DNA of 64,000 nt from an uncultured Fibrobacterota bacterium (GTDB lineage: Bacteria > Fibrobacterota > Chitinivibrionia > Chitinivibrionales > FEN-1185): assembly GCA_963753345.1 (NCBI GenBank), contig CAVWBU010000035.1:128001-192000 (forward strand), written 5' to 3'. The position numbers were made by a program, and so were the translations under genes. The notes beneath the pieces were generated by a model. It did no database searches, had not been told where the DNA came from, and saw only the letters and a list, made by a program, of their open reading frames with translations. Shown piece by piece: positions 811 to 63,195 of this stretch; position 1 is the stretch's first letter, and each line of letters starts with the position of its first letter.

Positions 811-1256
811 CGGGGGAGAGGTTTCTCCCCCGGCCTCGGCCGGCTTCGCCGTCCTCAGCACTCCCCTCTCCTGGGTGCACCCCAAGTAGAAGCAGTTGCA
901 GAACCGGACACTTGTGTGGGGGCACCCACGAGCAATAGTTGATAAAGAAACCTGGTGGATGTTTATCCCGCCCAGAAACCTTGGCTGGCGCAAGAAAAGT
1001 CATTTGACAGAACGGATTTCCGTTGCCGCTGCGTTAGGGACGACGGAGGGTGTGCAAGAGCACATTGCCGGCCGACCCCGGCCGAGCCGGAGCGCCAGAG
1101 GCGCGGAGACCACCGCCGCAGGCGGCCCGCAGGGCGCGAAGCGTGAACGCCATCGGGGCTGACTGGCAACGAGGCCAACGGCCGAGCCCGGAGGATGACC
1201 CTTGGAAGCACCCGAAGGGGTGGAACCGACCCGAGCGCAGCGAGGGGAACGCCCAA
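811..1256 (+). repeat. Dispersed structured element, copy 1 (full length)
   Basis: GGGGGAG..TCCCCC start, CTCCTGGGTGCACCCC/GGGGGCACCCACGAG, TTGACAGAA, GCGTTAGG ... GGGAACGCCCAA end. Confidence 0.9.
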
Positions 1257-1379
1257 GTCTAATTCTTGATTTCCGAGCGCCACGAATCCTGATCATCCCT
1301 GATCGTGTGCCGAATGAAAACGACTCTCCTCATCATGCCTTCTGTTCCAGTTTGATCTTTATGGAAAGAATGTCTATGA

Positions 1380-3083
1380 TCAAGGTTGCTTTATAAGATC
1401 ACGAAAATCTTTCTCGTCCCATAAAATGGAAAGAGACTTGTCTCGTTTCCAAGCCGCGAAATCCTTGAAGCCTTTGTCGATGGCCCTCTTGAGCCAAGCA
1501 AGGGCATCCACGTTATCTTGCTTGAGTGAATAACATTCGGCGATTCGCCAGCAGGACTTGGCAGCAATTGGCGGGAACACGGATGCGTTCTGATAATCGG
1601 CGATAGCCTCATCATATTTGCCTTGAGATCTTAACACGTTGCCCCGATGAAAGTGGGCATAATGATCATCGGGCCTTTGCCGTATCGCCTCATTGAAATC
1701 TTTCAGCGCCGAATCAATCTTTCCTGTGAGACTGTATATCAAGCCTCTGCCGAAATAAGCATGCTCCTGGGCCCCGTTGTATTCCATTGGTGATAGCCAC
1801 GCGATGGCCTTCGTGTACCACACAATGGCGCTGTCGTACCGTCTTGCATCACCAAGGGCAATCGCTTTGTTCAGTGCCGCCAGAGAATGATTGCCCGAAA
1901 GGAACAGGGTACTGTCGAAATCCATAATGGCCTTGGCAAGATCTCCCATCTTGTAGTACACAATTCCCCTGCCGAAATATGCGTTTGCAAAATGGAGCGT
2001 AGGGTCGTATAGGTATGAACTGCTGTCGAGTGTTATCGCTTTCGTGTAATCGGCAATGGCATCCTTTAACTTGCCCAGAGTCTTGTACGTGGCGGCTCTC
2101 TTGGCGTACGCGTCGGCCCACGATGGATTGATCTTTATGGCAAGGTTGTAATCCTTGATCGCCCCTTGGTAGTCGTTGCGGATATCGCGAAGCACTCCGC
2201 GATTCGTCAACGCATCAACGCAGGAACTGTCAAGCATTATCGCGTTTGTGTATTCTGCTATCGCGCTGTCGTACTGCACTTGTACGTACCGCGCCGGATC
2301 GGGAATTTTCATGCGTGCGGCGTAGCGCGGGTTGGCAGCCATGGTCGAAATAAAGTAGCGGGCGGAACCAAGTCCGTTGTGGACAGCGGCGATTCGTGGA
2401 TTCACCTTGAGGGCGGATTCATAAAAGCCGATCGCTGAGTCGAGAAGTCCGGTATAGAGAAACAATTCACCCATACCGGCAAGCGCGGTGACATTGTTCG
2501 GGTCTTGCTTGAGTACCTGCCGAAACGCCGAAAAGGCTTTGGCTCGGTCTCCAATAATCTTGTTTGCATTTCCCAGATTTATGAGACTGGTCTCATCCTT
2601 GGTCATAGCTTCAGTCCGCTGATACGTGAGGCCATCACCTCCTCTGGCTTTAATCTCAACCGGTGTTTGCGTACCGGTTTGCTTCATACGAGGCAGGGGA
2701 GCACCATTTCTTGCGGGTATTTTGCTGTATTTTGCGATTGAGACCGTTTTGGGTTGCGTTGGGGCATACTTCGCGGCCTCAAGCTCCTTGCTCGGTTCAC
2801 TTTCCTTTGTCAAGGAAGGATTCGGTCCGCGCCAGAGCCTTGCCGCTTGTTCTTTTTGAGTATTATGATAGACAGGGGGAGCGGCCTTACCCAACGGAAT
2901 GGTGCAGAGCACTATGCCGAAGACTACGCCGATCACCAGGGCGAGCGCCTCAAAGGTCGCCACCCTGTTCCCTGATTCGATGAGAAAAATATCCCCGCGA
3001 TCTTCCAGAACCCGCAGGAACTCAGCATCGCTCAGGAGCTTTCCCTCATCATCTTCTTCGTTTTCAAGTTGACGAGGATACAT
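1380..3083 (-). CDS. Membrane-anchored tetratricopeptide repeat protein
   Basis: One N-terminal TM segment and many TPRs (AYFGRG..Y..GD..KAI.DF). Confidence 0.85.
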   Translation of the reverse strand: MYPRQLENEEDDEGKLLSDAEFLRVLEDRGDIFLIESGNRVATFEALALVIGVVFGIVLCTIPLGKAAPPVYHNTQKEQAARLWRGPNPSLTKESEPSKELEAAKYAPTQPKTVSIAKYSKIPARNGAPLPRMKQTGTQTPVEIKARGGDGLTYQRTEAMTKDETSLINLGNANKIIGDRAKAFSAFRQVLKQDPNNVTALAGMGELFLYTGLLDSAIGFYESALKVNPRIAAVHNGLGSARYFISTMAANPRYAARMKIPDPARYVQVQYDSAIAEYTNAIMLDSSCVDALTNRGVLRDIRNDYQGAIKDYNLAIKINPSWADAYAKRAATYKTLGKLKDAIADYTKAITLDSSSYLYDPTLHFANAYFGRGIVYYKMGDLAKAIMDFDSTLFLSGNHSLAALNKAIALGDARRYDSAIVWYTKAIAWLSPMEYNGAQEHAYFGRGLIYSLTGKIDSALKDFNEAIRQRPDDHYAHFHRGNVLRSQGKYDEAIADYQNASVFPPIAAKSCWRIAECYSLKQDNVDALAWLKRAIDKGFKDFAAWKRDKSLSILWDEKDFRDLIKQP

Positions 3084-3391
3084 ACATCTTCCCTTCCATC
3101 TCCTTTATTAGAGCAGAAATTTGGGGGAAAGTTCCCAATTATTGGAAATACTTGCCTTGCTCAGTTGTTGCAACGGCCAGCATTGTGGGCGTTTGCAAGC
3201 TTCCCTCGCGTCGTTTATGGAGTCCAAATCTCGATTCGCAACTGAGGAGAACCGAGCATTGACGATAAAGCCAGCAACCCGTTCAGACGTTCTTTGGTCA
3301 AATAGGATGAACGAAGAAAGTCACCAATCGTTGTGGAAAGGAAGATAACATCTTCGGGGCATGGTACTATCCCCAGAAAAAGGAGGCGCAT

Positions 3392-7510: not shown

Positions 7511-7562
7511 AGCGGGATGGGCCTACGTTTTCTTGATTGACAAAAACAGCGCTACCCTTTGT

Positions 7563-7787
7563 CCAGAAACCTCGGCTGGCGCAAGAAAAGTAATTTGACA
7601 GAACAGATTTCCGTTGCCGCCGCGTTAGGGGCGACTGGAGGCCGCGCAGGAGCGCGGTGCCGCCCGACCACGGCCCGCAGGGCCATCGTGGCAGGCGGCC
7701 CGAGGCCGAAGGCCGACGACCCTTGGAAGCACCCGAAGGGGTGGACCGGAAGGAGAACCGACCCGGCTTTAGCCGGGGAACGCCCAA
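7563..7787 (+). repeat. Dispersed structured element, copy 2 (3' module only)
   Basis: TGGCGCAAGAAA, TTGACAGAA, GCGTTAGGGGCGACTGGAGG ... GGGAACGCCCAA. Confidence 0.9.
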
Positions 7788-11390: not shown

Positions 11391-11814
11391 GAGGGGGGGA
11401 GGTGTCCCCCTAGGGTGCGGCTTCCGGCGCCTCCTTAACAAATGCGCACAAGAATAGAACTCGGAGGCGCCGGCGATCCGCACCCATACCCCCTCGTGGG
11501 TAGCCCCCAAGGAAGTTTATCAGCAAGAAAGAAACATCAGCTGCGGGGGCGCCGAGAAAGAGAGTTGAAAAGTCAAAGATGAAGCCAGACTGATTTGTTA
11601 TACATATAGATTGGCGTGAGAACAAGTAGTTGACTAAATAGATTCCTCCTGCCGCGCGTTAGGGACGACGGAAGGTGTGCTGGAGCACATTGCCGGCCGA
11701 CCCGGCCGAAGGCATAGGGCGGTCCGGCAACGAGGCTGACCAGCCGAGCCTGGAGGAGAACCGACCCCAAGTAGAGCCGCACGGCCGTGCGGCTCTACTT
11801 GGGGGAACGCCCAA
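11391..11814 (+). repeat. Dispersed structured element, copy 3 (full length; 40-bp perfect palindrome at 11765-11804)
   Basis: All conserved boxes present; terminal hairpin is GTAGAGCCGCACGG/CCGTGCGGCTCTAC. Confidence 0.9.
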
Positions 11815-11852: not shown

Positions 11853-12626
11853 ATGGGAAAAGAACTTGACAGATTTGTGAACATCGTCGCGAAACTCCGC
11901 GCCCCGGGCGGATGCCCGTGGGACCGGGAGCAGAACAACAAGAGCATCCTCTCGTGCCTGCTCGACGAGACGTACGAGTTCTTCGAAGCGGTTGACGAAA
12001 ACGACAACCACAAGATGACCGAAGAGCTGGGCGACCTCCTGTTGCAGGTGGTGCTGCATGCGCAGATCGCGCAGGACGAGGGCCGCTTCGACCTCGAAGA
12101 CGTGGCGCGCGACATCGCCGACAAGCTCATCCGCCGCCATCCCCACGTGTTCGGCGACGTCACGGTCGGCTCGTCGACCGAGGTGATTCACAACTGGGAA
12201 CGGATCAAGAAGGACGAAAAGGAACACCGCAAGTACCTCGTCGACGACATCCCCGACGCACTGCCCGCGCTGTTCAAGGCCGAAAAGATCCAGCGCCGCG
12301 TGGCCAAAGTCGGGTTCGACTGGAAGGACATCGGGCCCGTGCTCGACAAAGTGGAAGAGGAGTTCCGTGAGTTCCGCGAGGCGCTCGTTAAGGGCGACCG
12401 CACCAACGCCGAGGAGGAGCTGGGCGACATCCTGTTCGCGCTCGTCAATGTGGGCCGGCACAACCGAATATCGGCCGAAGACGCCCTGCGCGTGACCGTC
12501 AAGAAATTCGCGAAGCGCTTCCGCTATATCGAAGACCGGTACAAGGAGCTGGGAAAAGACATCCACAAGGCGCCGCTTGCGGAAATGGACACGTTCTGGG
12601 AGGAGAGCAAGAAGAAGGTCGGGTGA
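11853..12626 (+). CDS. mazG: Nucleoside triphosphate pyrophosphohydrolase MazG
   Basis: LRAPGGCPWDREQ, EELGDLLLQV, KLIRRHPHVF and a second EELGDILFA domain. Confidence 0.95.
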   Translation: MGKELDRFVNIVAKLRAPGGCPWDREQNNKSILSCLLDETYEFFEAVDENDNHKMTEELGDLLLQVVLHAQIAQDEGRFDLEDVARDIADKLIRRHPHVFGDVTVGSSTEVIHNWERIKKDEKEHRKYLVDDIPDALPALFKAEKIQRRVAKVGFDWKDIGPVLDKVEEEFREFREALVKGDRTNAEEELGDILFALVNVGRHNRISAEDALRVTVKKFAKRFRYIEDRYKELGKDIHKAPLAEMDTFWEESKKKVG

Positions 12627-45731: not shown

Positions 45732-45746
45732 TAATAAAGAGAAAAA

Positions 45747-47277: not shown

Positions 47278-47336
47278 ACTTTTAAGATTTATACATGGGT
47301 GGAAGTCCAGCCTGTCTCAAAACTCAAGAGAAGATC

Positions 47337-49618: not shown

Positions 49619-49637
49619 TCTGAAGTAATAACTCTAT

Positions 49638-50222: not shown

Positions 50223-50330
50223 GATTGGCGCGCGGTTCCGGGAGGAAGTGGCGGACCGGCGGTATGATCAATATAATAATTTGTTGCGTCAGGGGTAAAA
50301 TCGCATTTGTTAAGAAAAGGAAATTATCAT

Positions 50331-50751: not shown

Positions 50752-50767
50752 GTCTTTTCTTTGACTT

Positions 50768-51244
50768 TTAAGTATTATCAGGTAGCCCTAGATCTATATC
50801 CCTCGACATCACAATAGCATCATCACCATCGTCAGAATAGTATTTCCTGCGTATCCAGCGGATTTCGAATCCGAGTTTGACGTACAAATCAAAGGCAAGA
50901 CGGTTTTTCGACCGGACTTCAAGGTGGACCGATTCTGCGCCGCGGCGGCGGGCCGCGTCTGCCGCTGCCGCCAGGAGGCGGCGCGCCACGCCTCGGCGCC
51001 GGTGGTCGGGATGAACGGCGATGGTGTTGATCTCAAGTTCGTCTGCGGCGAGAACGGCGAACACGAAGCCGCATGCCGTGCCGTCTTCGCGCTGCGCAAC
51101 CAGATTGACGGCGTTGTCGGCGGAAAGCTCCGAGGAAAATGCGGCGGCCGACCAGGTGACCGTGCGGCACGAATGTTCTATGTCAAGGATGGCGGGAAGA
51201 TCGCACTTCACGGCGGGCCTGATCGTCGAAAGGCGGTGACTCAC
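50768..51244 (-). CDS. rimI: Ribosomal protein S18 alanine N-acetyltransferase
   Basis: IAVHPDHRRRGVA, LEVRSKN..A..LY.K.GF..RRKYY..GDDA. Confidence 0.9.
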   Translation of the reverse strand: MSHRLSTIRPAVKCDLPAILDIEHSCRTVTWSAAAFSSELSADNAVNLVAQREDGTACGFVFAVLAADELEINTIAVHPDHRRRGVARRLLAAAADAARRRGAESVHLEVRSKNRLAFDLYVKLGFEIRWIRRKYYSDDGDDAIVMSRDIDLGLPDNT

Positions 51245-52239
51245 GGCACATCCTCCGTCAGGTCGTTGTCGCGCCGCGCTTCGTCAACCATCCGCGTGAG
51301 CCTCGCCACCACTGCATTGACGCCGCGGCCGGTGACCGCCGACATGGAACGCCAGCCCTTCGGCAGCGCAAGGCCCTTTGTTCCTTCGACAAGGTCGCTT
51401 TTCGACAAGATGAAAAGCGCGGGCTTCTGCGCAAGAAGCGGGCTGTACGCGGAAAGCTCGCTCACCAGAAGCGCGGCCTCGGCCCTCGGGTCCGGGGAAT
51501 CGGCCGGGACCAGAATCGCAAGTACGGCCGTGCGTTCGATATGCTTGAGGAACGTGATGCCGAGCCCTTTTCCAAGGTGCGAACCTTCGATGAGGCCCGG
51601 AATGTCGGCTGCGACAAACGACCGGTAGCCTTTGCATCTGACAATTCCCAGGTATGGCTGGGTCGTGGTGAATGGATACGCCGCGATCTTCGGCCGCGCC
51701 GAGGAGATGCTCGAAAGAAACGTGGACTTGCCTGCGTTGGGGCGTCCCACGATTCCCACGTCGGCCAGCATCTTGAGCACGAGCCGCAGCTTTCTGTATT
51801 GGCCGTCTTTTCCCTTCTCGGCATGGTCGGGCAGGGGGTTTGTGCGGGTCTTGAGCTCTGCGTTTCCGCGGCCGCCCGCTCCGCCCCGAGCTGCGCAGAA
51901 TGATTGCGTATCGTCAACCGCATCGAAAAGGAGGTCGCCCGAATCCGCGTCATACACCACCGTGCCGAGCGGGATCGGCACCATGATGTCTTCGGCGTCC
52001 TTGCCGTGCTTGTTGCCGCCTTTGCCGTTTGCGCCGCTTTGGGCCCTGCAGTGGCGGTGGAAGTGAAGGTCTTGAAGCGTGCGGAGATGATGGGAGCCCC
52101 TGAGAAAAATGCTCCCGCCCCTGCCGCCGCTGCCGCCGCTCGGGCCGCCCCGCGGCCGGTATTTTTCGCGGAGATAGGCGAAGCAGCCGTCGCCGCCGCT
52201 GCCCGCCTGTGCTTCGATGGTTGTTTCGTCGATGAACAT
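51241..52239 (-). CDS. obgE: GTPase Obg/CgtA
   Basis: MFIDE..GSGGDG, GRPNAGKST, YPFTT, DIPGLIEG. Confidence 0.95.
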   Translation of the reverse strand: MFIDETTIEAQAGSGGDGCFAYLREKYRPRGGPSGGSGGRGGSIFLRGSHHLRTLQDLHFHRHCRAQSGANGKGGNKHGKDAEDIMVPIPLGTVVYDADSGDLLFDAVDDTQSFCAARGGAGGRGNAELKTRTNPLPDHAEKGKDGQYRKLRLVLKMLADVGIVGRPNAGKSTFLSSISSARPKIAAYPFTTTQPYLGIVRCKGYRSFVAADIPGLIEGSHLGKGLGITFLKHIERTAVLAILVPADSPDPRAEAALLVSELSAYSPLLAQKPALFILSKSDLVEGTKGLALPKGWRSMSAVTGRGVNAVVARLTRMVDEARRDNDLTEDVP

Positions 52240-52257
52240 TGGAGAGTCCGGTGGAAG

Positions 52258-52392
52258 AGGAAGTTTGCAAAGTTACAAAGTAACAAAGTCAAGAGAAGTT
52301 ACAAAGTGACAAAGTAGCAAAGTGACAAAATCAAGATTCCAGCCTGACCGTTCTGAACTCTGTCACTCTGTCACTTTGTTACTCTTGCACTT
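52258..52392. repeat. Inverted arrays of octamer (AAAGTKAC-like) tandem repeats
   Basis: AAAGTTACAAAGTAACAAAG...GTGACAAAG facing CTGTCACTCTGTCACTTTGTTACT. Confidence 0.7.
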
Positions 52393-52660
52393 TCTTGCTC
52401 TTCCCCGTGTCGGCTGGCGGCGGGGTTGCGGGGGCGGCCGGAGCATCGTTCTTTGCCTGCTTCTTGTACGAATCGGAACGGTAGTCGGTGCTGTAGAAGC
52501 CGCTTCCCTTGAACAGGAATCCCCCGCCGGAGGAAATCAGTCGCTTTACCGCGCCGCCGCAGCCCGGTTTTTTGCATAGGGTGAGCGGCGGTTCCGAGAT
52601 ACGCTGGTATTCCTCAAAGATGAGCCCGCATTTTTCGCATTCGTATTCGTACGTCGGCAT
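52379..52660 (-). CDS. FmdB family zinc-ribbon protein
   Basis: MPTYEYEC..CG...C...GCG, FKGSGFYSTDY. Confidence 0.9.
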   Translation of the reverse strand: MPTYEYECEKCGLIFEEYQRISEPPLTLCKKPGCGGAVKRLISSGGGFLFKGSGFYSTDYRSDSYKKQAKNDAPAAPATPPPADTGKSKKVQE

Positions 52661-52756
52661 GGAGAAACTGCTCCGAGGCGATGAAAATCAGTCAATCGTT
52701 GAGATATGCTTGGGTGCAAAGAACGCCCCCAAATTACATCATGTTGGAGAAACAGG

Positions 52757-54085
52757 TCAACGCGCCGCGGGCACGGCGGTGAGGTCGTAATCAGATGCGG
52801 AGATGATTTTCACCGGAACAATGGAGCCGATCCTTGCGTTTCCCCGGGGAAGGAGGACCGTGCCGTCGACCTCGGGCGCGTCCCATACGGTTCTGCCTTC
52901 AAGAGCCGCCCGCTTTTTTTTTGCGACCCCCGGGCTTCCGTGCAACACCGCAACCCCGTGTTCCTGAGCAGGCCCGTCCACGATTATGTCAAGCGTTTTC
53001 CCCACGAGCGAGGCGCACCGGGCCGCGCTTATCCCGCGCTGGAGCGACATAATGCGTTCGCACCTGAAAAGCGCGGTTCGGTTCAGCGGCCTTTTCGGGA
53101 GTGAAAACGCGCGCGTTCCCTCTTCCGGTGAAAACGGAAATACGCCGAGGCGCTCGAACCGCGTCTCCTCCACAAAGTCAAGCAATTCGCGGAACTGCCG
53201 CTCGGTTTCGCCGGGATACCCGGCAATGAACGTGGTGCGTATGGCGGCATCGGACATTGCGGTGCGGATGCTCCTGATGAGGGCGCGGACGCCTTTCGAC
53301 AGCGGCCGGCGGTTCATGGACCGCAGAATGTCGTCGCTGATGTGCTGGAGTGGAACGTCGAAGTAGGGAAGAAGCCGCTTTTCTTGCGCGAAAAGATACA
53401 GCAGTTCGTCGCTTACGAGCTGCGGATGCAGATACATGAGCCGGATCCACGGGAATTCCGTTTCGGCAAGAAAATGCTTGAGGAGCCGCACAAGCGAGCC
53501 GCCGCGGTCGCATCCGTAGGACGTAGTGTCCTGGGAAACCAGGATGCATTCCTTTACGCCGCGGGAAAACAGCCAGCGCGCCTCGCAAATAATATCCTTT
53601 TCAGCACGGCTTTTATACGGTCCGCGGATGGCGGGAATGGCGCAGAAACTGCACTGCCGCGAACATCCTTCTGCTATCTTGAGATACTGGGTGGCGCGGG
53701 GCGGAAAAAGCACGCGCCCGGCCGGGGCTTTGCGGTGCGCGCCGAACGACGACGCAAGCACCGCGGGCCAGTCGTGCACGCCGAGCCACGCGTCAACCTC
53801 GGGGAAATGAACCCTCGCTTGGTTCCTGAAGCGCTCCGAAAAACAGCCGGCGACCGCGAGCGTGGCGCAGACGCCGGATTTCTTGAAGCGCGCCATGGTC
53901 AGGATGGCTTCTATCGCCTCTTGCCGGGCTTCCTTGATAAATGCGCATGTGTTGACGAGGATCGTATTCGCGCGGGAAAAATCGGACACCGCAGTATACC
54001 CCGATGCACAGAGCCGGGCGAGCATGCGCTCGCCGTCTATCTGGTTCTTGCTGCATCCGAGGTTCAACAGTGCAACGGTTCGCAT
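52757..54085 (-). CDS. rimO: Ribosomal protein S12 methylthiotransferase
   Basis: LGCSKN.ID, NTCAFI..A..E, YLKIAEGC...CSFCAIP, DAPEVDG. Confidence 0.93.
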   Translation of the reverse strand: MRTVALLNLGCSKNQIDGERMLARLCASGYTAVSDFSRANTILVNTCAFIKEARQEAIEAILTMARFKKSGVCATLAVAGCFSERFRNQARVHFPEVDAWLGVHDWPAVLASSFGAHRKAPAGRVLFPPRATQYLKIAEGCSRQCSFCAIPAIRGPYKSRAEKDIICEARWLFSRGVKECILVSQDTTSYGCDRGGSLVRLLKHFLAETEFPWIRLMYLHPQLVSDELLYLFAQEKRLLPYFDVPLQHISDDILRSMNRRPLSKGVRALIRSIRTAMSDAAIRTTFIAGYPGETERQFRELLDFVEETRFERLGVFPFSPEEGTRAFSLPKRPLNRTALFRCERIMSLQRGISAARCASLVGKTLDIIVDGPAQEHGVAVLHGSPGVAKKKRAALEGRTVWDAPEVDGTVLLPRGNARIGSIVPVKIISASDYDLTAVPAAR

Positions 54086-54136
54086 GCGTGGCCCTCAACA
54101 AATCGTTGTGTTACAGAAGAAAATTCTGCAGTATTC

Positions 54137-54167
54137 AAAAAAAACGGGCCGGTCGCGCCGGCCCGTT
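54137..54167 (-). terminator. Rho-independent terminator of the SPOR gene
   Basis: AACGGGCCGG/CCGGCCCGTT stem followed by a U-tract on the minus strand. Confidence 0.75.
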
Positions 54168-54190
54168 ACAACCTTTGTCGGATTACGGTT

Positions 54191-55207
54191 CTACCATCCG
54201 CCCGATGAGGAATCCTTTCCCGAGCCTGTTGTGCCGGTGCCCTGCGTGCCGCTTGTTCCGGTCGAGCTGCCGGTGCTTGGAGAACTGCTTGCAGCGGCAG
54301 AGCCCGTTGAGCCGGTTGCCGCCGACGAACCGGAAGCGCCGCTTGTTGACGGTTCGGAAGAGAACGAGGATGACCCGGTTGTCGTGCCGCTCGCCGAGGA
54401 GGACGACCCGGATGCCGGCGTTGTCGAAAAGGAACTGCTGTTTTGACTTGATGAAGAGCCGGAGAACGAAGACGATCCTGAAGATTCGGTACCGGATGAT
54501 GGAGTTGAGGATGGTGTTGAAGACGGTGTTGTCGAAAAGGAACTTTCCGTGGAGCCGGAGGACGAAGGCGACGGCGTGGCGGCCGGCGCGGGCGCGCTCT
54601 GGTAGCTTCCCGCGGCGCTGCCGCCGCCCGAGCCGAGCCCGTAGCCTTCCATGCCGACGTTGTCGTTGGACTTTTTGTCAACCCAGAATTCGTAGCCGTC
54701 GGTTGCAAGGGTGTTCTGTCCGAACGATTTCGCGTCGGCCACGACCTTGAAACCGCCGATGCGCACGCGGTAGAAGGTGCCGCTCAGGCTGGGGGTCGGG
54801 TTCTGGACTTCCGCGACATATGCGGGGAAACCCTTGTCTTTGAGCTTTGCGACCATGGAATTTGCAAAGGATTGAGACTTTACACACGACACCTGCACCG
54901 TATACCTGCCGTTTTCGGCAAATTCTCCCGAGAAGGAAGACGCCGCCGGCTTCTGTTCGGCTGCCGCGGCCTGCTTGCCCGTCTTCTTCGCGCCAGCTTT
55001 TCCCTTCTTTGCGGACGAGTCTTCCGAATAGAATTCCTTGAATATGTCGCCCGTGTCGGCGGCCGCCGAAGGTTCCTTGGCGAGCTGCGATGCCGGGGCC
55101 GCGCCTTTCCCCTGCTGGGGCTGCTTTGCCTTTCCGCATCCTGAAAGCGAAACGATGAGCATGCATCCAAGAACCGCGCCAACGACCGTGAGAAGTTTAC
55201 CGTGCAT
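54191..55207 (-). CDS. SPOR domain lipoprotein with Ser/Gly/Thr-rich tail
   Basis: Lipobox LSGC; YTVQV...A....KL...G..AY...YRVRIGGF. Confidence 0.85.
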   Translation of the reverse strand: MHGKLLTVVGAVLGCMLIVSLSGCGKAKQPQQGKGAAPASQLAKEPSAAADTGDIFKEFYSEDSSAKKGKAGAKKTGKQAAAAEQKPAASSFSGEFAENGRYTVQVSCVKSQSFANSMVAKLKDKGFPAYVAEVQNPTPSLSGTFYRVRIGGFKVVADAKSFGQNTLATDGYEFWVDKKSNDNVGMEGYGLGSGGGSAAGSYQSAPAPAATPSPSSSGSTESSFSTTPSSTPSSTPSSGTESSGSSSFSGSSSSQNSSSFSTTPASGSSSSASGTTTGSSSFSSEPSTSGASGSSAATGSTGSAAASSSPSTGSSTGTSGTQGTGTTGSGKDSSSGGW

Positions 55208-55396
55208 ATATCCTCCTTGAAGGGAAACCGTATCCTCCGCCCCGCTTCCTCTCGCGCATCATCGGCGGCTGCGCGGCAAAAAAAGTATTTGCGCGCGCCC
55301 GGACGCAATGGTTTACAATATGCGCCGGTTTACAATATATATAGAATCTACAATACTGTAACCCAAAAATCCATACTTTTTTCCAACGCGGGCCGG

Positions 55397-56530
55397 TTAC
55401 TTTCCGCCTGGCAAGCCGTCAAGCAGCCTTCGCGCCTCGACCGCCTGCGGCGTTTCCGGAAAATCCGCAACCACTTTCTTGAGAGTCCGGATGGCGGCGT
55501 CGATATCGCCTTTCCTGAGAAGGTCCAGCGCGGAGCGCGAGAGCTGCGCGGCTTTTTCCAGGTTCTGCGCGTAGCGGTCGGGATTGAGCGTCTGCTTGAG
55601 CGACGGAGGCACGGCATTGAGCCGGTAGGGGCCGTAGGTCATCAGGAGGCACTGTGGTCCGGCATTCGGGTTTGCGGCGTTGAAATAGGAGATCTTTCTC
55701 GTGTCAAATACCATATACCTGCCGTCCCATCGGTATGTCGCCTCGAGCGTGAGCGAGCGGACGCCGTTCACCGCGAGGGTGAGGCCTGCGGGGAGCGTAA
55801 CCCCGTCGAACACGGCGTAGGTGAAGGTGTATGAAAGGATTGAACTGTCGACGGGCGGTTTTCTGGTCTGGTCGGCGGCAAAGGTTCTGCTGTTCTTGCG
55901 CAGGGTGAGTTCGTACACGCAGCGGGTTGCGCTGTCCATCACGCACACGAGGCTGCTCAGCCACGATTCCCGGACAAACGCGCCCATGTCATCGTACGAG
56001 TAGGCGAAGTACTTTCCTTTGGGCGCAAGCTCGAACCTGAGCGTCGCCCTGTCGCCCTGTCGCCCCGGCGCGCACGTGATGGTCGTCTCATCGGCGATGG
56101 TGCGGAACCGGTCTTCCTGCCGGTACCTGAGCACGGAGGAAACCACGATATCGATCATTTCCCCCGGATTGAGAACGCCCGAAAGCAGGTCGCGCGTTTC
56201 GAGGGAATAGCTGCGGTTTGCAAGCAGGAGGTGGAACTGATGGTTTTTGTCAAGGACTTCCTCGTAGCGGGGCGCTTCGAGGTTGACGCTGCGAAGGGTC
56301 TTTTCCATCTCGTCGGCAATGTCGCCTGACAGCGTTACCGGCACGGTGTACTGCGGCGGCATGCGGGAAAAAACCATACGATCGGGTGACTGCACATTGC
56401 GGAGTTTTTCATAGGCATCCGGAAGCGGCGCCTTACGGCCCGCGGCGGCGCTCCACAGGAGCGCAAGGCAGAACGCGGCGGCAGGAACCGCGGAACCTAA
56501 CGACACAACGTGATCAAAACCGATTTTCAC
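55397..56530 (-). CDS. Hypothetical exported protein with C-terminal TPR
   Basis: GTG overlapping the hisB stop; AI..L..VV..FP.T..A..A. Confidence 0.65.
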   Translation of the reverse strand: MKIGFDHVVSLGSAVPAAAFCLALLWSAAAGRKAPLPDAYEKLRNVQSPDRMVFSRMPPQYTVPVTLSGDIADEMEKTLRSVNLEAPRYEEVLDKNHQFHLLLANRSYSLETRDLLSGVLNPGEMIDIVVSSVLRYRQEDRFRTIADETTITCAPGRQGDRATLRFELAPKGKYFAYSYDDMGAFVRESWLSSLVCVMDSATRCVYELTLRKNSRTFAADQTRKPPVDSSILSYTFTYAVFDGVTLPAGLTLAVNGVRSLTLEATYRWDGRYMVFDTRKISYFNAANPNAGPQCLLMTYGPYRLNAVPPSLKQTLNPDRYAQNLEKAAQLSRSALDLLRKGDIDAAIRTLKKVVADFPETPQAVEARRLLDGLPGGK

Positions 56531-57120
56531 ACGAGCGTTCCCTTTGAAGAGGGGATGTCGCGGCCGGCCCTTGGATTTATGCCGCAGGCCTGCGACAGGG
56601 CTCGGCCGAAGGCCTTGAAGACCGCTTCGAGGGAGTGGTGGCTGTTCCTGCCGCGCAGCAGATCGACATGCATGGTGAACAGGCCATGATCGGTGAACGC
56701 CTTGAAGAAGTCGTGCGCGAGGTCGCATTCGAAATCGTTGACATGCGTGGTTGCAAGTTCCACATTGTAAATAAGGTTCGGCCTCCCGCTCAGGTCCACG
56801 CACACGCGCGCGAGCGATTCGTCCATGGGAACGTGGCTTTCGCCGAAGCGCACGATGCCCGCGTGGTCGCCGAGCGCTTTATGGAGCGCCTGCCCAAGGC
56901 AGATGCCGATGTCCTCGGCGCTGTGGTGGAAATCCACGTCGGTGTCGCCGGCGCAGGCGATGGTGCAGTCGAACAGCCCGTGCTTGGCGAAGAGCGTGAG
57001 CATGTGGTCCATGAAGGCGTTGCCGCTCGCCGCCTTCGATACGCCGGAGCCGTCGATGGACAGTTCGCAGCTGATGTCGGTCTCCTTTGTCTTCCTTTTT
57101 ATCAAGGTTTTTCTTGCCAT
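56527..57120 (-). CDS. hisB: Imidazoleglycerol-phosphate dehydratase
   Basis: R.TKETDI, FMDHML, DFHHSAED, NSHH..EAVFKAFGRAL, PSSKG. Confidence 0.97.
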   Translation of the reverse strand: MARKTLIKRKTKETDISCELSIDGSGVSKAASGNAFMDHMLTLFAKHGLFDCTIACAGDTDVDFHHSAEDIGICLGQALHKALGDHAGIVRFGESHVPMDESLARVCVDLSGRPNLIYNVELATTHVNDFECDLAHDFFKAFTDHGLFTMHVDLLRGRNSHHSLEAVFKAFGRALSQACGINPRAGRDIPSSKGTLV

Positions 57121-57154
57121 GGTCGGTCCTTTCCCGTGCCTGTGCACGCGCCAA

Positions 57155-58238
57155 TTAGGCCGCGGCGGTTTTGAAAAAGTCCTTCACCGCGGATTCAAAC
57201 GCCTTTGTTTCATCGTCCGTCCCCACGTTGACGCGGAGGCAGTTGTCGAGCATCTGATACTGCGACACGTCGCGTACCAGGATGTTTTTTTTCTTGAGGA
57301 ACGAAAAGAGCTCGTTCTTGCGTTTTGTCCGCATCAGGATGAAATTCGCCGCGCTCGGATACACCGCGTCGAACGGCATTGACGCCAGAAACGCAAACAG
57401 CGAATCGCGCCTGTCCGAAAGCTCCTGTACCCGGGGCCTGAGCTTGTCTGCATTGTCCAGAAGCACCCCGGCCACCTGTTCGGAAAAAAAGTTGATGTTG
57501 TACGGGAGCTTGATCTTATACATTTCCTGCACGACGTCGGGCGTGCCCAGCATATAGCCGAGCCGCAGGCCCGCACCAGAAAACGCCTTTGAAAAGGTCC
57601 GCGTGATGATCAAGTTGGGATTTTCTTTAAGCAGCGGCACGGCGCTGTACCCGCCGAATTCCACATACGCCTGGTCGAGCACGAGAAAACCGGTGTGCGC
57701 CTTGAGGATCGCCCTGATGTCGGATTCGCTTAGCGAGCAGCCGGTCGGATTGTTGGGCGAGCACAGCACCATAAGCGAGCGCGGGTACTGCGACGCGGCC
57801 TCGCAGATCTTTTTCACGTTGAACGTAAGGTCGTTGGTGAGAAACACGGTGCGCTCAACGGCGCCGAGGCCGGTCGCGAGCAGCCGGTACACGGTGAAGG
57901 TTGGTTGACAAAGAATAACATCCTTCCCCTGTCCCGCGAGCGCAAGCAGCAGCACGAGCAGCATCTCGTTCGATCCGTTGCCCACCATGATCCCGCCGTC
58001 CGGCACTCCGCTGTAGGCCGACAGCTTCGCCTTGAGCGCCTCCGGGACAAAGTTCGGGTACCGGTTGAACGGCCGCTTCCGGCAGAATGCCGCGATCTCG
58101 TCCTTGATGGCAGGCCGGAAGATCGTACGGGTTCTCGTTCTGGTTGAGCTTGATGTCCGCGGCCTCGGGTTCGAGATGGTACCGGGTGAGGTTGCGGATT
58201 CGTTCGTTGACAAGAAGGAGTGAGTCGCTCAGGTTCAT
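57155..58238 (-). CDS. hisC: Histidinol-phosphate aminotransferase (frameshift near 58112)
   Basis: KLNQNENPY in one frame; NRYP, GNGSNE, SPNNPTG, RTFSKAF.GAGLRLGY in the next. Confidence 0.9.
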
Positions 58239-58392
58239 GAGTGCTTTTTGATTGCCGATGCAAGGGCGATGATTTTCCGCGGCCACATTTCCGTACGTCG
58301 CGCCGGCCCCGGACTTGATATTCATTCATTTACAATATAAATTAGTACGGGTTGGTGCGGGTACAGGCTGTAGAAACAGGGTGAGAATGAGG

Positions 58393-60048
58393 CTATTTGA
58401 CCACCGTAAACCCCTTCACCGTCTCGCTTTTCTCGTAAATCGCTTTTGCAAAGTACCTGCCAGCCGCATGGCTGGGAAGCCAGACAGCTTGATTATTACA
58501 GATAGACAAATTCTCCAGCAACTGGCCTCGCATGTCGAACACACGAAGTGATGATGTTCCGGCAGGAAGCGAGAAGCGGACTTTTTTGGAAGAGAACTGG
58601 TTGATGGAAATATCATTTTGTGAATGATTCGTTTGACGGGAAACCGGGTTGGCAGTTTTGGTCGGATAGTCTTTGCTGTTCACGAAGATATTAAATGTCA
58701 AGGTGTCCTTATTGCCGAAATCGTCGGACACGAGGAATTCAACATGGTCCATATATGAGGAATCTGTTGTCGGTGTCCAGGATATTGTTCCGCCCACGGA
58801 GACAGTCATGCCGGAGGGGACTTTGAGGGGAGTATAGCCGTGGTTGATCGAGTCGCCGGAGACGGGGATCTTGAAAGTAAAGGAAAAGGACTTGTAGGCG
58901 TAGCGGTCGGATATGATTGAGAGGAGGCAGGCAAGATCTCCGCGACCCGAAGTAGGTGCTCCCCGTCGCGATGAAATTGCCATCACTTGTCGGAGTGATG
59001 TCATCTGCATAAACGTCACTGGTGACTGTTTGGGTCCATACCGTATCGCCATCAGGGGTTATCTTGAAAATGTATGCCTTTGAAGATCCCGTGCCAATAG
59101 ACTCCGTATACGCTGTGACAATAAAGTTTCCGTCCGTACTTGACGTGATTGATTTCGCGCCGGCTACGCCTATACCAGTGAATGTTCTGGTCCATACCGT
59201 ATCGCCGTTGGGTTTGATTTTCAGAAGATAGGCCTTTGAAAATCCGGTGTCATACGGGAATGCATGCCCTGCGACAATAAAGTTTCCATCTGCATCTGCC
59301 GTGATTGCCCAAGCGACATTAAAGTCGCTCCGGCCGTATTTTCTTGTCCACAGCGTATCGCCGTTTGGGGTGACCTTGAGCAGGCAAACCTGGGAATACC
59401 CGTTTCCGTTTGTGGTTGATCCGGCAATAATGAAATTTCCTTCAGGTGCCGGCGCGATGGCACAGCCCGTGTTAAAGTCGCCAAGGCTGTATTTTTTAGT
59501 CCACAGCGTGTCGCCGTTCGGGGTGACCTTGAGAAGGTAAACATCAGAAGGTTCTCCGTTGAAAGAGAGGCCTCGCCCGCGACAAGGAAATTTCCGTCGG
59601 GCGTGGCGTTGACGGCAAAAGCAGTCCCTCCGACGGGGATTGTTCTTGTCCATATCGTATCACCATTTGAATTGATTTTCAGAATATATACATAGGGCTG
59701 TTCGCCGTATTTACTTGTTGTCCCGGCAACGATGAATTTTCCGTCTCCGGCCGCTGCAATGCCATTTGCGCAGGCTTCCCCTGTGCCGTTATATGTTTTG
59801 GTCCATACCGGATTGCCGAAGGCGTCGGTTTTGAGCAGGTACATTTTCATGGGGCTGCCGGTTGTATAGGTGTTCCCCGCGCCAACCAGGTGGCCGTCCG
59901 CAGTCGCTGAAATGGCGGAAAGCGCACAGTAATCCTCCGGAGTGCTGCAGGTTCTCTTCCAGTATGTCTGGCCTGCACAGTCACTCGCCAATGTCAACGC
60001 CGCAAGCGCGAACATCACCATCTTTATTGCCGATTTTTTGTAAGTCAT
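58393..60048 (-). CDS. Secreted beta-propeller repeat protein with Ig and sorting domains (frameshifts near 59.57 and 58.95 kb)
   Basis: Tandem YLLK..PNGDTLWT..Y repeats across three frames; VFDMRGQLL tail. Confidence 0.7.
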
Positions 60049-60073
60049 AAAGAACTCCTTGTTCCTCCGTTGA

Positions 60074-60300
60074 CCTCACCCCTGTTTCCCCTCTCCGATA
60101 GGAGAGGGGATGAAGGTGGCTATTTTACTCTCCCCTCTCCGGGCGGAGAGGGGAGAGGGAGGGGTGAGGTCTATCTTGATTTCACACCCAATAATATATG
60201 TAAGGAAACCCGAAAGTGAAGCTTGCCGTAGAGAAAGTGTTTTCTTGCAGAAAATACTAGCGGTTCCCCTCTCCCCGTGGGAGAGGGGTCGGGGGTGAGG
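60074..60300. repeat. Cluster of three CCTCACCCC..CCCTCTCC/GGAGAGGG REP-like palindromes
   Basis: Units at about 60074-60110, 60130-60170 and 60264-60300; the last overlaps the tatD 3' end. Confidence 0.75.
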
Positions 60301-61057
60301 TCCCGAACGCCCTGTTAAAATTCCTCTCCGTCGCCGCGGCGAATTCCTCTTCGTCCATCTTCCTGATCTCCGCGATCTTCTTTCCCACAAGGGCCACCCA
60401 TGCAGGCTGATTCGGCTTCCCGCGGTGGGGAACAGGGGCGAGATAGGGCGTGTCGGTTTCAATGAGGATCGAAGCGAGGGGGGCGCAAGCGACAACTGAA
60501 GCGAGTGAGGATTTTGCGAACGTGACGATGCCCGAGAACGAGACAAAATACCCCGCGTCGGCAAGTGCCTTCAGGGTCGTTGCATCGCCGGTGTAGCAGT
60601 GGAACACGGCCCGCTTCACGCCCGCGGCTGCGCACATGTCAAGCGCGCGGTGCTCGCAGCCGCGTGAGTGTACGATGACCGGTTTGTCGAGCCGTTTGGC
60701 AAGTGCAAGGTGCTTTTCGAAAAAGGATGATTGCAGTTCGAAAGAAGGATAGGCGGGGTTTGTTGCGTCAATGCCGGTTTCGCCGACCGCGATGACGCGA
60801 GGATCGGCGAACAGTGCAGCAAGTTGCTCTTCCCACAACGGTGGTGCATCGTTCACGTCAAACGGTGAAATCCCCACCGCGGCAAACAGGCCTGGATGGC
60901 CGGCGCATTGCGAAATGACGGTGTTGCTTGACGAAAGGGATGTTGCGGCATTGAGGATGCGGTGCACGCCGTTTGCGCGGGCATGATCAACGGTTGCTTT
61001 GAGCGCGGCGTCATCGCAACGGTAAAGGTGGGCGTGTGAGTCGGTCCACTGGATCAT
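60257..61057 (-). CDS. tatD: TatD family DNase
   Basis: DSHAHL, AVGETGID, VHSR, FHCYTG, ETDTPYLAPVPHRGK.NQP. Confidence 0.93.
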   Translation of the reverse strand: MIQWTDSHAHLYRCDDAALKATVDHARANGVHRILNAATSLSSSNTVISQCAGHPGLFAAVGISPFDVNDAPPLWEEQLAALFADPRVIAVGETGIDATNPAYPSFELQSSFFEKHLALAKRLDKPVIVHSRGCEHRALDMCAAAGVKRAVFHCYTGDATTLKALADAGYFVSFSGIVTFAKSSLASVVACAPLASILIETDTPYLAPVPHRGKPNQPAWVALVGKKIAEIRKMDEEEFAAATERNFNRAFGTSPPTPLPRGEGNR

Positions 61058-61069
61058 GGCCCGATTGCG

Positions 61070-62056
61070 TCAGGTCCGGTTCTTGAACACGGCGGCCCAC
61101 TTTGCCAGGTTCCAGATTTCGGGTTTCTTCATGCCGCGCCCGATCTTGAAAATCACCACGTCTTTGGCCTCGATATGGAAGGGCTTGCCGTTGAAGGTAT
61201 ACTCGAGAAGGCTGTTGTTGCCAACGCAGACGTCAAAACTGTCGCGGGCGACGCACCGCTTGGTCTGGTTTGCCTTGAGCCAGTTCTTCCAGGACACGCC
61301 ATCCGAAAAGATCTGGATCCACACCGAGTCTTTTTTCGCTTTTATTTCCAGCGAAAGAATTCCGCGTCCCATGGAAATGCTGTCAACGGCTATTGCCGCG
61401 GGAGAGCCGGTGTCCGGCGCAGTCGCAGCCTTGGGTGCGGGGATGGGGGCGGGCGCGGGGATGGGGGAGGGCACGGCGGCGACCGTGTCGTGCCGCACCA
61501 TTTTTCCGATCAAGCTGTCTTCCGCCGCGTCTGTCGGGGCGGCCTTATGAACGGCCGGTTTTGAAGTATCGGTGCGCGCCGAAACCGCGGCCGGAGCCGC
61601 GCGGGGAGCAATCCCCGGCGCACCGGCCTTCCTGTTTGCAAAGAAGCTTACAACGCCGAGAACGACGATGACGCCCACGATGATCATCCACGGCTTGAGC
61701 TCCTTTTTTCCGGGCTTTTTTGCCATGGTGATGACGATTTGCGTGTCGCTGCCTTTGCGGAAATTTTCGTCGTGGATGCCGCGCTCCTCATAGAATTTTT
61801 TGAGGACCGCCTCGGGATCGAGGAGAAGATACTTGGCAAGCGAGCGAAGGTAGACGCGTATGTACGGGTCGGCAGGGAGGTTGGTGTAATCGTTCACTTC
61901 GAGCGAACGCACGTACTGGACGCTCAGCTTGAGGTCCTTGGCGATGGTTTCGAGGGCAATGCGCCGGGCAATGCGTTCTCTGCGGAGGATGTCGCCCACG
62001 CGCTCGGGCCCGGTCTCCTCTTTCGCCTGCCCGCCGGCTTCATTTTCTTCAGACAT
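61070..62056 (-). CDS. RodZ-like HTH / DUF4115 membrane protein
   Basis: G.ILRRER, YIRVYLRSLAKYL.LD, TM segment, VWIQI..DG. Confidence 0.85.
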   Translation of the reverse strand: MSEENEAGGQAKEETGPERVGDILRRERIARRIALETIAKDLKLSVQYVRSLEVNDYTNLPADPYIRVYLRSLAKYLLLDPEAVLKKFYEERGIHDENFRKGSDTQIVITMAKKPGKKELKPWMIIVGVIVVLGVVSFFANRKAGAPGIAPRAAPAAVSARTDTSKPAVHKAAPTDAAEDSLIGKMVRHDTVAAVPSPIPAPAPIPAPKAATAPDTGSPAAIAVDSISMGRGILSLEIKAKKDSVWIQIFSDGVSWKNWLKANQTKRCVARDSFDVCVGNNSLLEYTFNGKPFHIEAKDVVIFKIGRGMKKPEIWNLAKWAAVFKNRT

Positions 62057-62660
62057 TCGGTGCGCCCTTTCGATCGGCGTATGACGCAAACAGATCAATG
62101 GTTTTTCTCACCGGCAGCCCCACCACATTGTAGTAGCAGCCGTCAATCCTGTCGATAAATGCCATGGCCCTGCCCTGGATGGCATACGCTCCGGCTTTGT
62201 CGCAATACTCCCCGCGGCTGAGGTACTCGTCGATTTCCCATTGCGCAAGGGACCTGAACTGCACCGCGGTGGTCTCGATAGCGCCGGCCGCAAACCCGCA
62301 TTCGCCGCACACGAGCGCCACCGACGTCAGCACCGTGTGCCTGCGGCCGGAAAGCCGCCTGAGCATGGTCGCGGCGTCGCTCTTGGTCGTCGGCTTCCCG
62401 AGTGCCACCCCGTCAATTGAGACGACGGTGTCCGCGCCGAGCACCAGCGCGTCGGGTCGCGATACCGACACCGATTGCGCCTTGGCAACGGCAAGTGCCG
62501 CAAGCTCTTTGTCAAGCTGACGCCCGGAGAAAAAGTCGGCCTCATTTTCCACTGACGGTCGCACGACATCAAACTCGAAACCCAGGGCCGAGAGAATCTC
62601 GCGCCGGCGAGGGGATTGCGAAGCAAGAATAATGCGCCTATCGGGATTTCTCCACACCAT
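62049..62660 (-). CDS. maf: Maf nucleotide pyrophosphatase
   Basis: ILASQSPRRREIL, GADTVV, DKAGAYAIQG, NVVGLP. Confidence 0.95.
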   Translation of the reverse strand: MVWRNPDRRIILASQSPRRREILSALGFEFDVVRPSVENEADFFSGRQLDKELAALAVAKAQSVSVSRPDALVLGADTVVSIDGVALGKPTTKSDAATMLRRLSGRRHTVLTSVALVCGECGFAAGAIETTAVQFRSLAQWEIDEYLSRGEYCDKAGAYAIQGRAMAFIDRIDGCYYNVVGLPVRKTIDLFASYADRKGAPNV

Positions 62661-62740
62661 GGTAAATATACTTATCCTTCGGCATGCGCGGCAATGGGCC
62701 GTAGTTCTAGTGGGGTTATATGAAAATCAAAAATAACAAA

Positions 62741-63195
62741 TTGGGCGTTCCCCTCGGCCTCGCATGGGCGCGGCCTCGGGTCGGTTCTCCCTCCGGTCTC
62801 GTCCTTCGTTCTCGGGCCGCCTCGGCCCTATGGCCCACAGGGCCGGGTCCGGGCGGCACCGCGCTCTGGCGCGGCCTCCGGTCGCCCCTAACGCGCGGCA
62901 GTGGAAATCTATTCTGTCAACTTCTTTTTTTGCGCCAATCGGCATCCGCTTGAAATCTACTGTCAACTGCCAACTGTTTACGCCTTTTCTTCTCAATCTC
63001 TCAACTGCTCAACTTCTCAACTATTCAACCGCTCTCCGTGGGTGCCCCCACACAGGTGCTTGATTCTTGCCACTACCTTCACTTGGGGTGCACCCAGGAG
63101 GGGATTGCGCCCGCCCAACAGGAAGGGCGGAAAGCGCCGCAGGACACCGCAGGCCGAAGGCCGAGGAGGCCGGAGCGAGGGGGATACTTCCCCTC
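62741..63195 (-). repeat. Dispersed structured element, copy 12 (full length)
   Basis: All boxes on the minus strand, with a TCAACT-repeat linker. Confidence 0.9.

Follow-up and report, generated by a model that had tools for sequence, protein, structure and literature searches.

A composite structured repeat interspersed through the non-coding DNA of a Chitinivibrionales genus, with a strongly covarying 3' module

Introduction

The stretch of DNA analysed here, called the window below, comprises 64,000 nucleotides (nt) from an uncultured Fibrobacterota bacterium (contig C35, positions 128001-192000, of the assembly G000; 4.52 Mb, 55 contigs, 94% completeness). An earlier note, made from the letters of the window alone, described in it a modular non-coding element in 13 copies with compensatory base changes, which raised the question of what this element is and whether its pairings are under selection. 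We found that it is a composite non-coding interspersed element, specific as a full family to one genus of Chitinivibrionales, and that its 3' module is a strand-specific, strongly covarying fold conserved across families of the order. The model that we prefer, at roughly an even chance, is that of an old non-autonomous mobile element whose structured RNA would act at the 3' ends of genes or between cistrons.

One sixth of the non-coding DNA of this genome consists of a single structured element that is absent from the libraries. If the 3' module is an RNA, it would be a large new motif in which covariation is unusually rich, with natural variants by the hundred in each genome and relatives throughout the order. 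If the unit is mobile without a terminal inverted repeat (TIR), a target-site duplication (TSD) or a linked gene, the mechanism would itself be of interest.

Architecture of the repeat unit

The fixed box order proposed for the full-length copies was visible both in an alignment of the seven full-length window copies (A1) and in the consensus of 173 full copies from the whole genome. It runs from a GGGGG-AAGTAT-CCCCC hairpin through a variable hairpin, a helix of CTCCTGGGTG.CCCC with GGGGGCACCCA, and an AGTTGA-rich linker to TGGCGCRAGAA, TTGACWGAATAGATT, GCGTTAGG, a set of hairpins and GGGAACGCCCA. The 5' module consists of three hairpins, namely H1 (GGGGG-AAGUAU-CCCCC), H2, which varies in length and sequence, and the long helix H3 (CUCC-UGGGUG.CCCC ... 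GGGG.CACCCA.GGAG). It is followed by the linker (median 82 nt), made of tandem 8-nt (A)GTTGA(A) repeats in which spacings of 8, 7 and 16 nt from one TTGA to the next occurred 168, 28 and 25 times, respectively. A conserved box, TGGCGCRAGAA...TTGACWGAATAGATTTC (TGGCGC...TTGAC...), lies between the linker and the 3' module.

About 145-170 nt long, the 3' module forms a closed junction of several helices. Helix P1 (GCGUU/AACGC) encloses P1b, P2, a long three-part P3 and P4; P5 adjoins P1, CCA follows directly after P1, and the unit ends ...AACGC-CCA at the repeat boundary. This end was present in 289 of the 351 3' modules of G000, and 43 of the remainder were not covered there. The joints between the helices (AGG, GGAC.GGAG and GAAGGAG..CCGAC) are conserved, and the apical loops are often C(GNA)G-type triloops (GCGAAGC, CCGAAGG, CCGCAGG). 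Optional nested hairpins occur inside the 3' module and elsewhere in G000, CACCCGAAGGGGTG 56 times and GAGACG...CGTCTC 38 times; window examples of nested hairpins lie at 21125-21150 and 7720-7745. In a subfamily of lone 3' modules the TGGCGC/TTGAC box is replaced by a second upstream box type (TTGTCAAG...GATTGTG...CTGCC), seen at window 49436-49475 and at C16:179923, C18:98700 and C19:104238.

Abundance and state of the family

A profile hidden Markov model (HMM) was built from A1 and used with nhmmer at E<1e-3. In the window it found exactly 13 loci, the same ones that had been described, with the start of four partial copies shifted somewhat; the seven copies said to be full length do align end to end. 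Across G000 it gave 509 matches on 49 of the 55 contigs, far beyond chance, with a sum of 132,971 bp or 2.9% of the genome. Chaining joined the matches into 491 loci, of which 173 were full, 100 had just the 5' part, 186 had just the 3' part and 32 were internal. Full units measured 329-673 nt (median 422, n=173), and 80 of the 100 lone 5' parts had no 3' part on the same strand within 3 kb. Counted by module, G000 holds 351 3' modules and 272 5' modules. Break points of partial copies clustered at the module border, with 77 matches breaking at HMM positions 260-279.

On a crude map of open reading frames (ORFs), in which 3415 ORFs cover 84% of G000, elements occupied 17% of the non-ORF DNA. 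Long intergenic regions were frequent hosts: 224 of 650 at 300-599 bp and 109 of 239 at 600 bp or more bore an element. Within G000, full units had a median nearest-neighbour identity of 0.78, the 3' core one of 0.91 and the 5' core one of 0.86. Nine full copies had a nearest neighbour at 0.95 or above, and these probably reflect duplicated contigs. Housekeeping genes (Asp/Lys/Asn-type tRNA synthetase, thioredoxin, DEAD helicase and others) were seen two to three times at 93-100% identity on small contigs of G000 (C4, C5, C9, C10, C13, C38, C39, C42-C45 and C53); the assembly therefore contains strain duplicates, and the element copy counts are slightly inflated.

Short-read assemblies of these bacteria, which live in peat and sediment, are also broken at the copies. 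When four DNA runs were examined over window positions 44001-64000, contigs ended at elements and depth heaped up there; none of their contigs bridged an empty site, the joints being cross-matches between copies. Moreover, the elements spawn spurious ORFs of more than 100 codons, and the ORFs of at least 100 codons lying over window copies (for example 963-1283, 23747-24310 and 45776-46165) are probably of this kind.

Covariation in the 3' and 5' modules

Three compensatory changes had been reported from the window copies, and each was exact to the base. The closing helix GCGTT/AACGC becomes GCGCC/GGCGC at 46024-46165 and 47336-47475 (A4), GCCGCC/GGCGGC at 7659/7694 corresponds to GCTGCC/GGCAGC at 50647/50682, and CCCC/GGGG of the 5' module is CCGCC/GGCGG in copy 7. 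Since RNAalifold on the hmmalign alignment of the 173 full copies returned almost no structure, and mutual information was dominated by subfamilies, covariance models were built for the two modules. The model of the 3' module (R1; 145 positions, 41 pairs) came from 11 window copies with the structure set by hand, and a scan of the window and 20 further stretches of G000 (460,665 bases) recovered 126 complete modules.

In these 126 copies, 92.5% of 5028 cells were standard pairs as compared to 77.4% after shuffling, a level that 0 of 500 shuffles reached, and 30.1-47.5% with slid partners. Changes on both sides were found at 31 of the 41 pairs (692 cells), although the alignment was fitted to the model and the copies are related through subfamilies, so that cell counts overstate the number of independent events. 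Two comparisons suffer less from this bias. In the first, eight distant relatives, found in seven genomes outside the genus and on one viral contig, were 92.2% paired versus 65.1% shuffled and 38-43% slid; 33 of the 41 pairs had changed on both sides in them, with helix sequences differing while the joints and the CGCCCA end were unchanged.

The second comparison was of close copies. Among 44 disjoint pairs of nearest paralogues (identity 0.85-0.999), stems differed at 0.075 per site versus 0.131 in unpaired model columns. Of 172 changed base pairs, 101 (59%) were canonical in both copies, 76 of them through a double change, whereas a neutral simulation left 20% canonical (standard deviation 2.6, maximum 30%). 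These values argue against a selfish relic without host function, in which only master copies would have needed the pairing and present copies would decay neutrally. We regard such a relic as rather unlikely, and the fold is in addition kept across families; in its favor, the copies fall into subfamilies, and mutual information revealed that many non-pairing columns co-vary as well.

The fold of the 3' module was further found to depend on the strand. G-U accounted for 232 cells and A-C for 35; the excess was driven by the pair at the base of P2, an invariant G-U (123 of 126), and the next pair (G-U 50, U-A 44, C-G 28, A-C none), and without those two columns the ratio was 59 to 35. By arithmetic on these counts the plus strand is 92.5% paired and its complement 88.6%, and the folding energy was lower on the plus strand in 99 of the 126 modules. 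This strand specificity suits RNA or single-stranded DNA, and not a duplex signal.

The 5' module behaved otherwise. Its model (R2; 137 positions, 20 pairs in H1 and H3) gave 82 copies in the DNA scanned with R1, and their pairing was 85.2% versus 82.3% shuffled and 58-64.5% slid; only 5 of the 20 pairs, with 27 cells, had changed on both sides. The earlier claim of a nucleic-acid element under structural selection therefore held strongly for the 3' module and weakly for the 5' module, which is a conserved set of hairpins with a weak case for covariation.

Placement and flanks

Of the gaps between genes, an element was present in 118 of the 664 convergent, 224 of the 2037 tandem and 81 of the 659 divergent ones. 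The upstream gene was co-oriented with a full copy in 102 cases versus 64, and within tandem gaps 61 full copies lay sense and 30 antisense. When a stop codon faced either end of the unit the median gap was 24-28 nt, with 69-74% of gaps at 40 nt or less; start codons facing the unit stood at a median of 54-77 nt.

Both flanks carry a base signature that was the same for any orientation of the neighbours, as compared to 25% of each base in the remaining non-ORF DNA. On the 5' side, A makes up 0.53 of positions -20..-8, and T-rich positions and a G come next. The 3' flank reads A, N and then T-rich (0.57-0.60), with conservation equal to that of the 5' side. A T-rich tract similar to the one behind the CCA end follows several tRNA genes of G000. 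ARAGORN predicted 53 tRNA genes there, and element 3' ends (GGGGAACGCCCA) flank two of these upstream.

Distribution and history

Strong matches to both modules were found in four of the five other species of the genus (G001-G005) and none in the fifth, G003. The other two genera of the family gave no strong matches to the modules, and weak multi-copy matches to the 3' module appeared in other families of the order. Order-wide, R1 matched 18 of 81 genomes and R2 16 of 81. A scan for the element motif in one genome per species returned at least 41 stretches, 36 of them from one Chitinivibrionales record and 2 from Fibrobacteres/Fibrobacterota; among the matches listed were one each in Elusimicrobiales, Gemmatimonadota and Terriglobus records. 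A G000 protein with a Fib_succ_major domain agrees with a placement in the Fibrobacterota. Ten viral contigs carried the anchor pattern, and the nine without an R1 match are probably chance. The tenth, L104, holds at 12366-12527 a simplified and distant relative of the 3' module, at 45 bits, with the same P1, joints and CGCCCA end, and one long hairpin instead of P2-P4.

Synteny was compared in two blocks, and orthologous sites were found both filled and empty. At the site of copy 7 a 3' module is present in G004, G002 and G005, with the same unusual P5 insert in G004 and G002, and the fold is kept in these three species though the surrounding spacer no longer aligns, which is hard to square with neutral decay of present copies. 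A hairpin of the GAGACG...CGTCTC kind is also seen in the G005 spacer at this site. The neighbouring copies 8 and 9 are both kept in G004, copy 8 on the same strand; G005 has one of the pair, at the copy-9 site, and G003 neither. The site of copy 6, a fragment in the window, holds a whole 3' module in one congener, and G004 alone has a module upstream of the IMP dehydrogenase gene. The site of copy 12 is empty in G004 (112 bp), G005 (181 bp) and G003 (17 bp). In G004 it reads ...aaagtaac-gttctttc..., the dash standing for the insertion point, so the T-rich 3' flank predates insertion.

Seven comparisons of same-site copies across two species gave 178 unchanged pairs, 45 that differed on both sides and were canonical, 4 that differed on one side and were canonical, and 37 broken in one copy. 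Several same-site copies were closer to paralogues than to each other, which may reflect replacement or re-insertion.

A model for the element and its alternatives

Under the preferred model the units would have spread in the ancestor of the genus, by insertion into A-rich/T-rich spots behind genes that left neither TIR nor TSD. The enzyme would have been supplied in trans and would no longer be linked to the units, and the copies would by now be mostly immobile, as the nearest-neighbour identity of full copies suggests. The 3' module would work as RNA on the plus strand of the element. This RNA could be part of the neighbouring mRNA, as the 61:30 excess of co-oriented copies in tandem pairs hints, or its own short transcript ending at the CCA/T-tract; its compact fold, at a 3' end or between cistrons, would serve stability, processing or termination.

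Several observations weigh against this model. In the 5' module A-C (105 cells) exceeded G-U (40), opposite to the 3' module, and the plus strand was more stable in only 23 of 82 copies while the complement was better in 59. Since the 5' module thus has no plus-strand signal, a single plus-strand RNA over both modules is not supported. The central box has TTGAC in 212 of 343 modules together with a TAGATTT-like stretch, but its spacing misfits the apparent promoter of the genus, and strict TA..TTT accompanied only 14% of the TTGAC boxes. That promoter, recognised by eye, is TTGAC-N18-19-TAnnTTT(T) upstream of tRNA genes and IMP dehydrogenase (window about 42290-42313). A scan of four copies for sigma-70 promoters and terminators gave nothing above shuffled sequences. 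No mobilising enzyme is linked to the units: domain searches of G000 found no RVT_1 reverse transcriptase (RT), no Y1 transposase (PF01797, 0 matches) and no TnpB-type domain, and no module lies beside the RT, Y1 or TnpB genes of the congeners. The covariance-model alignments lean to the model in the presence of subfamilies, as said, which inflates the cell counts. Finally, same-site copies in two species were often less alike than paralogues in one genome, and selection may consequently have acted on master copies instead of each locus. This would suit the selfish relic considered above, as does the fact that one congener, G003, lives without the element.

The opposite strand preference of the two modules could also mean that the unit is a pair of small structured RNA genes. 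Transcription would run outward from the A/T-rich linker and box, giving a plus-strand RNA of the 3' module and a minus-strand RNA of the 5' module, and would stop each time at the T-rich tract just beyond the unit. Modules do occur alone, and both ends, read outward, show a G+C hairpin, CCCA(C), few A and a T-rich tract; one terminator-like hairpin with its T-tail was predicted at the 5' end of copy 7, in the outward direction (29301-29317). However, neither strand of the centre had a promoter-like match above shuffles, the box misfits the promoter pattern, and 131 of 343 3' modules stand alone without a box, which leaves this alternative very doubtful.

Alternatively, the folds might be DNA hairpins, each recognised on the strand whose 3' end sits at that terminus. 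The modules would then be the ends of a relic element moved as single-stranded DNA by an HUH/Y1 enzyme, of the IS200/IS605 type (PATE-like) or similar to REP/BIME. We consider this possible but unlikely. The opposite strand bias at the two ends (3' module plus, 5' module minus) and the hairpins at both termini would be expected, and so would the absence of TIR and TSD. Over 140 copies with 15-nt windows, the longest direct match between flanks came to 3.79 nt as compared to 3.72 nt in shuffled pairings, with no excess at 7 nt or more, and inverted matches were no longer than in shuffled pairings. As flank matches were no longer than between different copies, there is no TSD and no flank-level TIR; by eye, the two unit ends share only TGGG(G/C)G. 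The many C(GNA)G-type apical triloops point the same way, such triloops being extra-stable in DNA, and Y1 genes exist in three congeners (G002, G004 and G005). On the other hand, domain searches found no Y1 in G000 or G001, and the 3' flank is as conserved as the 5' flank. Known recognition sites in single-stranded DNA are simple hairpins, whereas the 3' module has 41 pairs in a five-helix junction whose joints are conserved, and is kept across families. The IS200-type unit of G002 is dissimilar to the element, and neither it nor the single TnpB locus among the congeners, in G001, had an nhmmer, R1 or R2 match to the element. That IS200-type unit is 553 bp long, encodes a Y1 transposase of 144 aa and occurs in 6 identical copies (6-8 overall; e.g. 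C5:146106-146658 of G002); it is not in G000.

The conserved CCA end allows yet another explanation, a retro-element like a short interspersed nuclear element (SINE) or a small-RNA gene. Its transcript, the 3' module, would be trimmed to stem plus CCA, with P5 stacked on P1, and copied by an RT in trans. It is quite unlikely in our view. The AACGC-CCA end and its T-rich tract would fit, CGCCCA is kept in distant relatives, 3'-only copies (186) outnumber 5'-only copies (100), and the structure is RNA-like. But domain searches detected no RT in G000, G001 or G005, and no module lay near the RT genes of G002 and G004. TSD and A-tail were absent from the 140 copies, no discriminator base stands between stem and CCA, and truncations cluster at the module border, not spread as aborted reverse transcription would give.

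A stronger form of the preferred model would make the 3' module a new class of mobile-element structured RNA that itself drives or guides the spread; it might be a ribozyme, serve as a tRNA-like primer or tag, or act as the guide scaffold of an unlinked enzyme. We put this forward tentatively, as an unlikely case. If true, it would be a bacterial counterpart of SINEs or retrozymes, and would have colonised an entire order within the Fibrobacterota.

Comparison with known families

The earlier note could not place the element in any known family, and this was borne out: no Rfam family reached its gathering score and no relation to an insertion sequence (IS) or miniature inverted-repeat transposable element (MITE) was found in searches that did not cover ISfinder. 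Rfam 15 had 0 matches in the whole window; one copy searched at E up to 10 matched only SNORD75, at 16 bits versus a gathering score of 50. No group II intron is indicated, with no Rfam intron match in the window and no RVT_1 in G000. No description of repeats in Chitinivibrionia or Fibrobacteres was found in the literature, the supplements of motif papers not being covered.

REP/BIME elements (REPINs) of proteobacteria form hundreds of extragenic hairpin copies behind genes, are mosaic and modular, and can be transcribed with their neighbours; the REPs themselves are palindromes of 20-40 nt associated with a RAYT (Y1) gene. The present element likewise has hundreds of modular hairpin copies just behind genes. 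It differs in unit length (about 420 nt), in its five-helix junction and in the lack of any Y1/RAYT gene in G000, and REP/BIME was rejected on these grounds; that it exceeds REPs in size and order had already been noticed. Correia/CREE, BOX, ERIC and RUP elements are non-coding and non-autonomous, make up 1-3% of a genome and fold as RNA, with BOX showing a modular A-B-C build of variable internal units; they have TIRs and target duplications, or a length of 100-200 nt. In contrast, the element here is larger, has neither TIR nor TSD, covaries strongly and extends through its 3' module over the order. A MITE was rejected as well, with no TIR, no TSD and no parent IS sharing ends.

IS200/IS605 ends, PATEs and omega/reRNA share the absence of TIR and TSD, hairpins at the ends, strand specificity and an RNA that ends exactly at the right boundary. 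Like PATEs, the element has no TIR or TSD, has subterminal hairpins and is strand-specific; however, no TnpA, TnpB or IscB was found in G000, although for IscB (RRXRR) the control was silent too and the negative is weak. An IS200/IS605-derived PATE was rejected in view of the lack of a resident Y1/TnpB in G000 and of ends unrelated to the IS200 and TnpB loci of congeners. Similarly, the IS110 bridge RNA was rejected: G000 has a single gene of this DEDD type (PF01548) for about 490 loci, with no R1 match near it. One of the three PF01548 genes of the genus, in G005, had a 40-bit R1 match nearby, which is unremarkable because of the copy density of the element. Compared to tRNA-derived SINEs, the stem plus CCA at the 3' boundary, the T-rich tract after it and the many 5'-shortened copies are alike, but there is no cloverleaf, RT partner in G000, TSD or tail.

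TwoAYGGAY (RF01731) of Pseudomonas is described in a preprint as a multi-copy structured intergenic RNA of tens to about 200 per genome, often paired and preceded in fixed orientation by a short tandem-repeat array, with its function unknown (bioRxiv 10.64898/2026.09.22.753630). The 8-nt repeat array preceding the 3' module here is similar; there is no RF01731 match, and the fold, repeat motif and phylum are different, with an extra 5' module here. Together, the element behaves in the genome like REP/BIME, BOX and Correia and is built like TwoAYGGAY, and it lacks features that define each of them.

Ten cases of widely separated 5' and 3' modules had ORFs between them that share no family. The multi-copy proteins of G000 are those of duplicated housekeeping genes on small contigs, save for one IS5-family IS. 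This IS, of about 935 bp, has 4 copies 97.8-100% alike (C18:84589-85529, C32:215191-216120, C49:51028-51967 and, outside the window, C35:54412-55346), the TIR GAGCTTATCCATAAATAA and a transposase in two overlapping frames (184 and 160 aa), and is unrelated to the element.

The copies in the window

Seven copies are full. Copy 1 (810-1256, plus strand; nhmmer 812-1162) has its 5' module at 810-934, linker, box, and a 3' module at 1028-1256 with extra inserted hairpins; it scored 110.7 bits in R2 and 37.6 bits in R1 (E 1.1e-5), and R1 extended the 3' module to 1256. Copy 3 (11391-11814, plus; nhmmer 11393-11814) carries 5' and 3' modules at 11392-11561 and 11653-11814, with R1 at 98.3 and R2 at 114.7 bits. 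For copy 4 (20777-21191, plus; nhmmer 20778-21191) the modules lie at 20777-20949 and 21023-21191 (R1 120.1, R2 108.8 bits). Copy 5 (23747-24183, minus; nhmmer 23747-24182) has the 5' module at 24045-24183 and the 3' module at 23747-23886 (R1 108.5, R2 121.7 bits); the downstream ORF begins 12 nt past its 3' end. The modules of copy 7 (28866-29310, minus; nhmmer 28866-29309) occupy 29177-29310 and 28866-29035, the 3' module carrying a long inserted P5 hairpin (R1 117.2, R2 126.9 bits). Copy 12 (50330-50751, plus; nhmmer 50365-50751) has an insertion in hairpin 1 of its 5' module (50330-50512) and its 3' module at 50607-50751 (R1 138.9, R2 96.1 bits). Copy 13 (62741-63197, minus; nhmmer 62741-63194), with the best nhmmer match at 335.9 bits, consists of a 5' module (63033-63197), an octamer-repeat linker, the box and a 3' module at 62741-62897 (R1 107.2, R2 123 bits).

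The remaining six are incomplete. Copy 2 (7530-7787, plus, as in nhmmer; HMM 189-421) retains part of the linker, the box and the 3' module at 7619-7787 (R1 123.1 bits), and copy 6 (27003-27071, plus, as in nhmmer; HMM 356-421) only the last 65 nt or so of the 3' module. Copy 8 (45747-45913, minus, as in nhmmer) is a 3' module alone, matched by R1 at 45747-45904 with 123.5 bits. Copy 9 (45970-46165, plus; nhmmer 45970-46152) comprises box and 3' module (R1 46024-46165, 128.1 bits), and copy 10 (47336-47475, minus; nhmmer 47352-47467) a 3' module alone (R1 131 bits); both have the closing helix GCGCC/GGCGC. Copy 11 (49342-49619, plus; nhmmer 49342-49618) has linker, a variant box and the 3' module at 49472-49619 (R1 114.7 bits).

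The genes between the elements are ordinary ones, among them a VgrG/TssI-like type VI secretion tip protein (37134-39305, minus), a PAS hybrid histidine kinase (24200-27076, minus) and a UPF0182-type membrane protein (29323-32052, minus). The apparent promoter of the genus looks like the Bacteroidota -7 box joined to a -35 box of the sigma-70 kind. A second short repeat, of tandem TGTAGAT(T) units (e.g. tgtagattgtagaatgtagattg), was seen at 42005-42060, upstream of the IMP dehydrogenase region, and also beside tRNA-Gln, tRNA-Glu and tRNA-Ser genes on C7, C21 and C26.

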